From assembly GCF_003334405.1 (NCBI RefSeq), contig NZ_QOWM01000004.1: DNA of 64,000 bases; one strand, given 5' to 3'. The translations under genes were made by a program, and so were the position numbers. The stretch is from Escherichia coli (GTDB lineage: Bacteria > Pseudomonadota > Gammaproteobacteria > Enterobacterales > Enterobacteriaceae). Positions 30,415-34,277 of this stretch are shown here, piece by piece; the stretch's first letter is position 1; each line of letters starts with the position of its first letter. Under the pieces are notes generated by a model. That model did no database searches. It was not told the DNA's origin and worked only from the letters and a program-made list of their open reading frames with translations.

Positions 30415-30957
30415 ATGATTATCTATTTACACGGTTTTGACTCTAACAGTCCGGGTAACCACGAGAAAGTCTTACAATTGCAGTTTATTGACCCGGATGT
30501 ACGCTTGATAAGCTACAGTACGCGGCATCCGAAACATGATATGCAGCATCTGCTTAAAGAAGTGGACAAAATGTTGCAACTGAACGTTGACGAGCGTCCG
30601 CTAATTTGCGGCGTTGGCTTGGGCGGATACTGGGCGGAACGGATTGGTTTTCTTTGCGACATCCGCCAGGTGATCTTCAACCCTAATTTGTTCCCTTATG
30701 AGAACATGGAAGGCAAGATTGATCGCCCGGAAGAGTATGCCGATATTGCCACTAAGTGTGTGACCAACTTCCGTGAGAAGAATCGCGATCGTTGCCTGGT
30801 GATTTTGTCGCGTAATGATGAAGCGCTTAACAGCCAGCGGACATCTGAAGAGTTGCATCATTATTACGAGATTGTCTGGGACGAAGAGCAGACGCACAAA
30901 TTCAAGAATATCTCCCCGCATTTACAGCGCATTAAAGCGTTCAAAACCCTCGGGTAA
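30415..30957 (+). CDS. ycfP: UPF0227 family esterase-like protein YcfP
   Basis: ORF 30358..30957 trimmed to [14 protein letters not shown] (180 aa). Confidence 0.8.
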
Positions 30958-30963
30958 ATGCCC

Positions 30964-31097
30964 TCGTCGCATCAGGTAACCTTGCCGGTACCTGATGCGC
31001 TCCGAATTCTGTGGGTCGGATAAGGCGTCCACGCCGCATCCGACAGTCGAGCATCAATGCCTGATGCGCTTCTTATCAGGCCTACCGAACGCCCTGC
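30964..31097. repeat. REP/BIME cluster
   Basis: several imperfect palindromes of REP type (CGCATCAGG...CCTGATGCG, GTCGGATAAGGCGTCCACGCCGCATCCGAC, GCCTGATGCGCTTCTTATCAGGC). Confidence 0.75.
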
Positions 31098-31206
31098 ATA
31101 CACCCCTCACTCTATATCACTCTCACAAATTCGCTCAAATAATAAACAATAAACTCTGTTTTTTGATCTCACCCGGTAAAGTCGCCTATCTTTTCAGCAA
31201 CAAAAC

Positions 31207-31220
31207 TTGATTAACATCAA
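31207..31220 (+). promoter_or_regulatory. FNR-box-like site upstream of ndh
   Basis: exact TTGAT-N4-ATCAA (TTGATTAACATCAA) about 140 bp upstream of ndh start; ndh is known to be FNR-regulated. Confidence 0.55.
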
Positions 31221-31356
31221 TTTTGGTATGACCAATGCACCATTCATGTTATTCTCAATAGCGAAGAACATTTTCATTGCTGTAACCTGTTGTTAATTAA
31301 GAGCTATGTTAATAACCATTAATTAACAATTGGTTAATAAATTTAAGGGGGTCACG

Positions 31357-32661
31357 TTGACTACGCCATTGAAAAAGATTGTGATTGTCGGCGGCGGTGC
31401 TGGTGGGCTGGAAATGGCAACACAGCTGGGGCATAAGCTGGGACGCAAGAAAAAAGCCAAAATTACGCTGGTCGATCGTAACCACAGCCACCTGTGGAAA
31501 CCGCTGCTGCACGAAGTGGCGACTGGCTCGCTTGATGAAGGCGTCGATGCGTTGAGCTATCTGGCCCATGCGCGCAATCATGGTTTCCAGTTCCAGCTGG
31601 GTTCCGTCATTGATATTGATCGTGAAGCGAAAACAATCACTATTGCAGAACTGCGCGACGAGAAAGGTGAACTGCTGGTTCCGGAACGTAAAATCGCCTA
31701 TGACACCCTGGTAATGGCGCTGGGTAGCACCTCTAACGATTTCAATACGCCAGGTGTCAAAGAGAACTGCATTTTCCTCGATAACCCGCACCAGGCGCGT
31801 CGCTTCCACCAGGAGATGCTGAATTTGTTCCTGAAATACTCCGCCAACCTGGGCGCGAATGGCAAAGTCAACATTGCGATTGTCGGCGGCGGCGCGACGG
31901 GTGTAGAACTCTCCGCTGAATTGCACAACGCGGTCAAGCAACTGCACAGCTACGGTTACAAAGGCCTGACCAACGAAGCCCTGAACGTAACGCTGGTAGA
32001 AGCGGGAGAACGTATTTTGCCTGCGTTACCGCCACGTATCTCTGCTGCGGCCCACAACGAGCTAACGAAACTTGGCGTTCGCGTGCTGACGCAAACCATG
32101 GTCACCAGTGCTGATGAAGGCGGCCTGCACACTAAAGATGGCGAATATATTGAGGCTGATCTGATGGTATGGGCAGCCGGGATCAAAGCGCCAGACTTCC
32201 TGAAAGATATCGGTGGTCTTGAAACTAACCGTATCAACCAGCTGGTGGTGGAACCGACGCTGCAAACCACCCGCGATCCAGACATTTACGCTATTGGCGA
32301 CTGCGCGTCATGCCCGCGTCCGGAAGGGGGCTTTGTTCCGCCGCGTGCTCAGGCTGCACACCAGATGGCGACTTGCGCAATGAACAACATTCTGGCGCAG
32401 ATGAACGGTAAGCCGCTGAAAAATTATCAGTATAAAGATCATGGTTCGCTGGTATCGCTGTCGAACTTCTCCACCGTCGGTAGCCTGATGGGTAACCTGA
32501 CGCGCGGCTCAATGATGATTGAAGGACGAATTGCGCGCTTTGTATATATCTCGCTATACCGAATGCATCAGATTGCGCTGCATGGTTACTTTAAAACCGG
32601 ATTAATGATGCTGGTGGGGAGTATTAACCGCGTTATCCGTCCGCGTTTGAAGTTGCATTAA
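31357..32661 (+). CDS. ndh: type II NADH:quinone oxidoreductase NDH-2
   Basis: ORF 31330..32661 trimmed to TTG ([20 protein letters not shown]-binding motif), 434 aa. Confidence 0.9.
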
Positions 32662-34104: not shown

Positions 34105-34259
34105 GATGCCGTTGTACCTGGTGACTGTGAATGAAAGGTTATTATAAAAATAATCACCTCCGTTCACCAGTCCAGATCCCATAAAAATAATTGCTTTCTA
34201 TTTAACTGAAATTTAAAGATTTTTAAATTAATTAATGATTGTTATAAAAAATATCTTGT

Positions 34260-34277
34260 ATGTGATCCAGATCACAT
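34260..34277. promoter_or_regulatory. perfect palindromic operator (CRP-type core TGTGA-N6-TCACA) in comR-bhsA intergenic region
   Basis: ATGTGATCcaGATCACAT, 8-bp arms exactly complementary, about 70 bp upstream of bhsA start; binding protein not established (CRP or ComR). Confidence 0.5.

Follow-up and report, generated by a model that had tools for sequence, protein, structure and literature searches.

The finding is set in the spacer between ycfP and ndh of Escherichia coli, which lies in a stretch of 64,000 nt that was analysed at its full length and is referred to here as the window. A 601-nt query matched all 5,426 complete E. coli genomes, in which the genes under it are annotated as ycfP and ndh, and positions 31122-31422 of the window were 100% identical to positions 1,165,850-1,166,150 of MG1655 (NC_000913.3). 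U00096.3 coordinates were converted to window coordinates by subtracting 1,134,728. The product of ndh is NADH dehydrogenase II, a non-proton-pumping enzyme. The features of the region are given below in their order along the window.

31163-31176, unstranded: FNR II, a TTGAT half-site (TTGATctcaCCCGG) read from the sequence, 44 bp upstream of FNR I, which would place it at -94.5
31207-31220, unstranded: FNR I, exact consensus TTGAT-TAAC-ATCAA (TTGATTAACATCAA), centred at -50.5 (Myers 2013)
31221-31237, unstranded: PdhR box (ttTTGGTatgACCAATg), centred at -35 and overlapping the -35 hexamer (Anzai 2020)
31223-31264, plus strand: core promoter Pndh, with the -35 hexamer TTGGTA (31223-31228), a 21-nt spacer, the -10 hexamer TATTCT (31250-31255) and the start at 31264 (ROSE paper)
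31283-31307, plus strand: left arm of an inverted repeat (TAACCTGTTGTTAATTAA) with the ArcA-type box TTGTTAATTAAGAGCTAT (31290-31307, +27/+44), from matches to WGTTAATTAW and to the PWM
31283-31336, plus strand: 54-nt quasi-palindrome of two facing ArcA-type boxes, a potential RNA hairpin from +20 to +73 (inverted repeat, RNA fold)
31309-31340, minus strand: ArcA site of three direct repeats (+46/+77; Park 2013), with its core box TTGTTAATTAATGGTTAT at 31312-31329 and the right arm of the inverted repeat at 31319-31336
31345-31351, plus strand: Shine-Dalgarno sequence AAGGGGG, read from the sequence
31357-31359, plus strand: ndh start codon TTG, from the RefSeq annotation (ndh at 1,166,085, window 31357)
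31357-32661, plus strand: ndh CDS (NADH:quinone oxidoreductase II), from the ORF and the E. coli genome annotation

For the comparison between species, 80 Enterobacteriaceae ndh loci were fetched with one genome per species, and the window was added to give 81 promoters. TTG was found as the ndh start codon in 66 of the 80 loci (position 1501 of loci L001-L080), with ATG in 7 and GTG in 6. In the mechanical list of open reading frames the ndh frame begins at a further TTG (31330) that differs from the annotated start. The E. coli ycfP-ndh spacer also carries REP/BIME-like repeats (window 30960-31085) as an insert that is absent from other genera. When positions 30900-31500 were scanned against Rfam at E <= 1, the only match was a sub-threshold one to naRNA4/REP at 31014-31082 on both strands (56.5 and 52.5 bits, for a gathering score of 59.5), and the promoter and leader were empty.

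The ndh promoter and its FNR and PdhR sites

The transcription start of ndh was assigned to window position 31264, because three independent published coordinates agree on it, namely the FNR site at -50.5 (Myers 2013), the ArcA site at +46/+77 (Park 2013) and the Pndh promoter at 1,165,992 of U00096.3 in the ROSE study, where it is described as TTGGTA-21-TATTCT and its start was confirmed in vitro. The 5' leader of ndh is then 93 nt long. A simple sigma-70 scan gave no match at Pndh because the spacer of 21 nt is non-canonical, so this result does not count against the promoter, and the -10 hexamer was invariant across the Enterobacteriaceae loci.

Across both strands of the 64 kb window, TTGATTAACATCAA was the sole exact match (10/10) to the FNR consensus TTGATNNNNATCAA (TTGAT-N4-ATCAA), an operator of CRP/FNR type. 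The expectation from dinucleotide shuffles was 0.07 such matches, and at least one was found in 7 of 100 shuffles. An earlier note, made from the letters of this DNA, had described an exact FNR consensus upstream of ndh at 31207-31220, and the box was found there as described. The gene had been named correctly, and the reading of the box as a real site was borne out by Myers (2013), who list a single FNR site for ndh, at -50.5 (window 31213.5, the centre of the box), with a ChIP-seq peak at 1,165,151 that maps to window position 31200, 14 bp from the box, and who present ndh as their example of direct FNR repression.

The FNR box, which is placed just upstream of the -35 hexamer, was perfect and without mismatches in 78 of the 81 promoters, with 12 different forms of the spacer between its half-sites. 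Identity across the Enterobacteriaceae was 1.00 and 0.99 for the two half-sites, compared with 0.45 for the 4-nt spacer. Invariant half-sites around a free spacer bear the signature of selection for recognition by a protein.

The candidate half-site FNR II behaved differently from FNR I across the family, in that TTGAT at a spacing of 44 bp was present in only three Escherichia species or loci among the 80, and the mean identity of this region across the Enterobacteriaceae was 0.32. In genera other than Escherichia, the terminator hairpin of ycfP occupies the place of the half-site. Two FNR sites are reportedly needed for repression of ndh in E. coli. The position at -94.5 fits that of the second FNR site reportedly described by Meng, Green and Guest (1997).

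Directly adjoining the FNR box is the PdhR box, which had been absent from the earlier note. Anzai (2020) gives exactly ttTTGGTatgACCAATg for ndh, at genome position 1,165,180 (window 31229). This sequence follows the palindrome AATTGGTnnnACCAATT of PdhR, a GntR-type operator, with a perfect GGTnnnACC core, and it was the only TTGGT-N3-ACCAA in the window. Across the 80 Enterobacteriaceae loci the identity of the box was 0.99; outside them, it was decayed in Erwinia, Pantoea and Mixta, and kept in Winslowiella and [Pantoea] beijingensis. The leader sequence AATTGGT was considered as a second PdhR half-site and was rejected, as in Erwiniaceae it is retained irrespective of whether the main PdhR box is kept or lost.

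The TTAAT repeats lie in the transcribed leader

Downstream of the start, the string GTTAATTAA...GTTAATAACCATTAATTAACAATTGGTTAATAAA extends over positions 31292-31343 and includes GTTAAT (31308-31313) followed after 8 nt by ATTAAC (31322-31327). TTAAT or ATTAA was found seven times in the 52 nt from 31288 to 31339, the maximum of the window, the next densest place having four. In dinucleotide shuffles of the local 61-nt segment, of which 79% is A+T, 1.24 copies were expected (P of about 4e-4). The strongest symmetry was an 18-nt inverted repeat made of TAACCTGTTGTTAATTAA at 31283-31300 on the plus strand and TAACCAATTGTTAATTAA at 31319-31336 on the minus strand, with arms of the form TAACCnnTTGTTAATTAA that agree at 16 of 18 positions, a level never reached in 2000 local shuffles.

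Several overlapping inverted repeats built on TTAAT, among them GTTAAT-N8-ATTAAC, are therefore present at the striking density that had been noticed earlier. They had been placed upstream of ndh, which holds with respect to the coding sequence but not to the promoter, as the cluster lies at about +20 to +80, downstream of the start at 31264 and in the transcribed 5' leader. They had also been attributed to the FNR, Fis and IHF sites of the ndh promoter. In this attribution FNR does not stand, since the repeats are without the G and C of the FNR half-sites; IHF-like cores are present, and a scan with a crude Fis consensus found nothing. The stretch is overlain by a published ArcA site. The motifs did not fall outside the protected regions, which would have told against the earlier reading, but within published binding regions.

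A candidate that was tried and rejected was TTAAT-N4-ATTAA at 31309-31322 as a degenerate FNR site, given that it is without the G and the C of TTGAT/ATCAA and shows no conservation of its left half. Next in density among the TTAAT/ATTAA clusters of the window was the one at 34215-34266 (AAATTAATTAATGATTGTTATAAAAAATATC...) in the divergent comR-bhsA spacer, which may relate to a ComR or other operator.

The repeats coincide with ArcA boxes on both strands

The reverse complement of positions 31309-31340 was identical, base for base, to the three-repeat ArcA site TTATTAACCAATTGTTAATTAATGGTTATTAA that Park (2013; Tables S1, S3, S4 and S7) reports for ndh at 1165260-1165291 of U00096.2 (+46/+77; 18.7 bits). 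In the same work ChIP-chip and ChIP-seq peaks lie over the 18-nt ArcA box ttgttaattaatggttat (18.7 bits) at ndh, and the three repeats score 3.6, 12.5 and 8.0 bits (Table S4). The summits of the ArcA ChIP peaks map to +13 and +25, off the centre of the boxes.

To score the leader with ndh left out, the ArcA PWM was rebuilt from the 114 other published boxes. With this matrix the segment 31312-31329 on the minus strand reached 18.7 bits, among the top three in 64 kb, while an overlapping adjacent box scored 13.1 bits and the box on the plus strand 11.5 bits. The leader thus contains at least two TGTTA-like repeats at a distance of 11 bp with the score of an ArcA box, which is what an ArcA-P operator, built of direct repeats of the OmpR/PhoB type, is expected to show. 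Exact matches to WGTTAATTAW, the classic 10-mer of ArcA-P, occurred twice in the window, both of them in the leader and facing each other, one at +32.5 on the plus strand (31291-31300) and the other at +60.5 on the minus strand.

The box published for icdA (TTGTTAATGATTTGTAAT, 60284-60301, minus strand), which lies in the same window and also scores 18.7 bits, served as a positive control for the mapping of coordinates. The best match to the matrix in the window was TTTTTATAAATATGTTAA at 62557-62574 (18.9 bits), which falls within the coding part of ymfD in e14, a cryptic prophage rich in A+T, and is probably a chance match.

Previous predictions are in line with these results. Rolfe (2012) predicted ArcA sites at -57, +36, +52, +57, +66 and +68 of ndh, and our own matches were centred near -57, +36, +57, +66 and +68; conserved FNR and ArcA sites at ndh were also predicted by Ravcheev (2007). 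Phosphorylated ArcA (ArcA-P) represses transcription of ndh in vitro (Rolfe 2012). The sign of ArcA control at ndh in vivo is disputed: Park (2013) note that arrays had pointed to activation, although repression is seen in vitro with ArcA as the only regulator.

The reiterated TTAAT palindromes are the GTTAATTAA cores of the ArcA repeats on both strands: two ArcA boxes face each other and are therefore read as overlapping palindromes. The earlier note had not named ArcA for these repeats.

Conservation of the leader

In the Enterobacteriaceae, conservation over 73 distinct leaders was 94% for the left arm of the inverted repeat and 99% for the right arm, the right arm containing a conserved run of about 16-20 nt, and TTAACAATTGGTTAAT was invariant. 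By comparison, identity at the third codon positions of ndh was 0.57, and the longest run with at least 97% conservation in the first 600 nt of the coding sequence was 5 nt. These non-coding blocks are better conserved than the ndh gene itself. The stretch between the arms, which includes the GTTAAT at 31308-31313 of the GTTAAT-N8-ATTAAC palindrome, was unconserved (identity 0.66), and E. coli strain E69 already differs there.

The search was widened to 87 leaders by the inclusion of six loci found through protein homologues, five of Erwiniaceae type plus Shimwellia. The ArcA box on the minus strand was present in all 87 with at least 12.1 bits and a median of 19.4 (99th percentile of the background, 12.4 bits), and in the examples listed it was 26-31 nt from the start codon. 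Both arms of the inverted repeat were conserved, Erwiniaceae included. The score of the box on the plus strand rose from 11.5 bits in E. coli to 17.3 in Enterobacter and 21.5 in Salmonella. A near-perfect palindrome of 20 bp or more is formed by the facing ArcA boxes of Salmonella, Enterobacter and Shimwellia (L005 1430-1475; L051 1430-1475; L083 630-680).

For DR1, the outermost of the three repeats, Park (2013) give a score of only 3.6 bits, but DR1 and the adjoining AACAATTGGTT were invariant in the 73 distinct sequences. ArcA alone may not be the full explanation of the constraint on DR1, and overlapping constraints from IHF and ArcA may be enough to explain the invariance of this repeat and of AACAATTGGTT.

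IHF, Fis and other proteins at the leader

IHF-like cores were found within the cluster. With one mismatch allowed, cores of the TAACAAnnnnTTA type occurred in each of the arms, with their centres at +26 and +67, against 0.29 expected from their density. The core at +26 (TAACAAcaggTTA, one mismatch) is on the minus strand, and others lie at +67 on the plus strand and at +70 on the minus strand, all of them judged by the short core WATCAANNNNTTR, which usually has an A/T tract upstream. Footprints at ndh are reported at +26, -17 and -58 for IHF, and at -123, -72 and +51 for Fis. The core at +26 agrees with the IHF site reportedly mapped by Green et al. (1997).

A search of positions 31140-31360 for the Fis consensus GNNYAWWWWWTRNNC with up to one mismatch gave no match, this pattern being a crude rendering of a very degenerate 15-bp G-N13-C motif. 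A scan with a crude NsrR consensus gave nothing useful either. In the literature IHF, Fis, HU, NsrR and Fur are also described as acting at ndh, and in the IPOD-HR paper the main occupant, in rich as well as in minimal media, is named as likely to be IHF.

These observations bear on the alternative that the TTAAT repeats are chiefly sites for Fis and IHF (with HU) in AT-rich bent DNA, ArcA being incidental. The IHF-like cores in both arms, the footprints and the literature on IHF, Fis and HU speak for it, and an attribution to Fis and IHF is plausible for part of the stretch. The conserved bases, however, point elsewhere, as they are those of the ArcA repeats, which reach up to 19-21 bits in all lineages, whereas the segment that would hold the Fis footprint at +51 (approximately 31301-31311, with the GTTAAT at 31308-31313) is the least conserved of the cluster and the one that differs in strain E69; no Fis-type sequence was found there at one mismatch or fewer. 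As the sites overlap, the two views are not exclusive, and only the strict form of this alternative, with ArcA incidental, is judged unlikely.

A possible RNA hairpin in the leader

The 54-nt quasi-palindrome could also be read mainly as RNA, the hairpin from +20 to +73 controlling the stability of the ndh mRNA or translation from the weak TTG codon, with DNA binding as a secondary property. The potential of the leader to fold was examined with RNAfold and RNAalifold, by counting pairs in the 73 sequences, with Erwiniaceae as outgroups and by comparing the energies of sense and antisense strands. A stable hairpin was predicted for the leader (minimum free energy of -23.4 kcal/mol, z = -2.2), and a consensus helix of 23 pairs could be formed in every one of the 73 leaders from Enterobacteriaceae, 97% of the cells being paired. 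This fraction, however, was the same as the mean of the shuffles (97.2 against 97.2). At columns 36/61, changes from U-A to C-G were seen with U-G intermediates in Leclercia and Pseudescherichia, but this was the only pair with changes on both sides, and the same pair was unpaired in 12 sequences. Except for this one pair, covariation was thus no better than in the shuffles, and neither covariation nor a known family (the Rfam scan being empty in the leader at E <= 1) marks the segment as a structured RNA leader.

The sense strand folded better than the antisense strand by 7-14 kcal/mol in Salmonella, Enterobacter and Shimwellia, a difference that comes from G-U pairs, whereas the antisense strand folded better in E. 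coli and Erwinia, so that no consistent bias was found. In the Erwiniaceae several pairs were broken without compensation while the ArcA repeats were kept. The hairpin stops 8 nt short of the Shine-Dalgarno sequence, which it does not sequester, and a search of the literature for control of ndh through its mRNA, sRNAs or Hfq found none. Any two facing protein sites would produce such a hairpin automatically. The evidence does not favour selection for the hairpin, and a reading of the segment as mainly RNA appears very unlikely.

The broader proposal that the quasi-palindrome has some extra function beyond ArcA, IHF and Fis, be it as an mRNA hairpin acting on stability or on translation from TTG or as the target of an additional DNA-binding factor on the TAACCnnTTGTTAATTAA arms, is slightly less doubtful than the hairpin taken by itself, and still improbable. 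What speaks for it is the right arm, in which about 20 nt are invariant in the 73 distinct sequences even though one part is the ArcA repeat of only 3.6 bits.

Finally, a functionless cluster arising by chance in AT-rich intergenic DNA, for which the 79% A+T of the segment and the slight excess of TTAAT in the window at large (175 copies, where 134 would be expected) could be invoked, has next to no probability and is refuted by the conservation of the arms (94-99%, against 57% for third codon positions) and by the published ChIP occupancy (Park 2013), with neither the seven repeats nor the 16/18 agreement of the arms being accounted for by the local shuffles.

Discussion

The region is best read as the regulatory region of E. 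coli K-12 ndh, with FNR I, PdhR and ArcA sites and a start at 31264, and a probability of about 0.88 is given to this assignment. The coordinates, the motif matches, the ChIP occupancy, the repression by ArcA-P in vitro and the deep conservation on which it stands were established here or in published work. This is a real and functional feature that had been described before.

The sites suggest how several signals converge on the promoter. Under anoxia, [4Fe-4S]-FNR occupies FNR I and, in Escherichia, would also bind the half-site 44 bp further upstream; from its position at -50.5, just upstream of the -35 hexamer, it represses instead of activating. PdhR, a repressor that senses pyruvate, has its box beside the FNR box and over the -35 hexamer. 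ArcA-P, formed when the quinone pool is reduced, would sit on the transcribed leader, immediately beyond the footprint of the polymerase, and lower transcription of ndh, using the box with a third repeat on the minus strand (+46/+77) and a second, weaker box on the plus strand (+27/+44). We infer that ArcA-P acts as a roadblock or by occlusion, and that the plus-strand box is used in E. coli. IHF and Fis sites would overlap the same AT-rich stretch as the ArcA repeats.

The locus is the same as the E. coli K-12 ndh promoter, being identical to that of MG1655, and the published positions for FNR (-50.5), for the PdhR box, for ArcA (+46/+77) and for the start (1,165,992) all map to it. This promoter is the subject of Green and Guest (1994), Meng, Green and Guest (1997), Green et al. 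(1996/1997), Jackson et al. (2004), Ogasawara (2007) and Park (2013). The additions made here are comparative only, and consist of a conserved facing pair of ArcA boxes, of a plus-strand box whose strength in Salmonella and Enterobacter contrasts with its degenerate form in E. coli, and of the restriction of the FNR half-site at -94.5 to Escherichia.

As an ArcA operator, the ndh site shares with the multi-repeat operators of icdA, sdhC and lon (Park 2013) the direct repeats of TGTTA type with 11 bp between their centres, the three repeats and the long AT-rich site, with the same PWM score as that of icdA. In contrast to these operators, it lies well downstream of the start (+46/+77) and not over the promoter, and it has a partner in a second box on the other strand, so that it takes on a palindromic look that is unusual for direct-repeat operators.

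With FNR-repressed promoters that have tandem or distal FNR sites, such as yfiD (FNR at -93.5) and the category 2 operons of Myers (2013), ndh has in common a consensus site placed where activation is impossible and a second upstream FNR site involved in repression. It differs from these promoters in that its promoter-proximal FNR site is at -50.5, that it has no activating class II site, and that its second FNR site is only a half-site and specific to one lineage.

FNR I, the PdhR box, the -10 hexamer and the facing ArcA pair make up a module that is conserved across the Enterobacteriaceae and mostly in the Erwiniaceae. That this control region was found again from sequence alone indicates that real operators can be picked out in this way, although no new biology follows from it. 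As ndh sets the oxidation of NADH without proton pumping, its control by oxygen, redox state and pyruvate is a textbook example of how signals are integrated at a single promoter.
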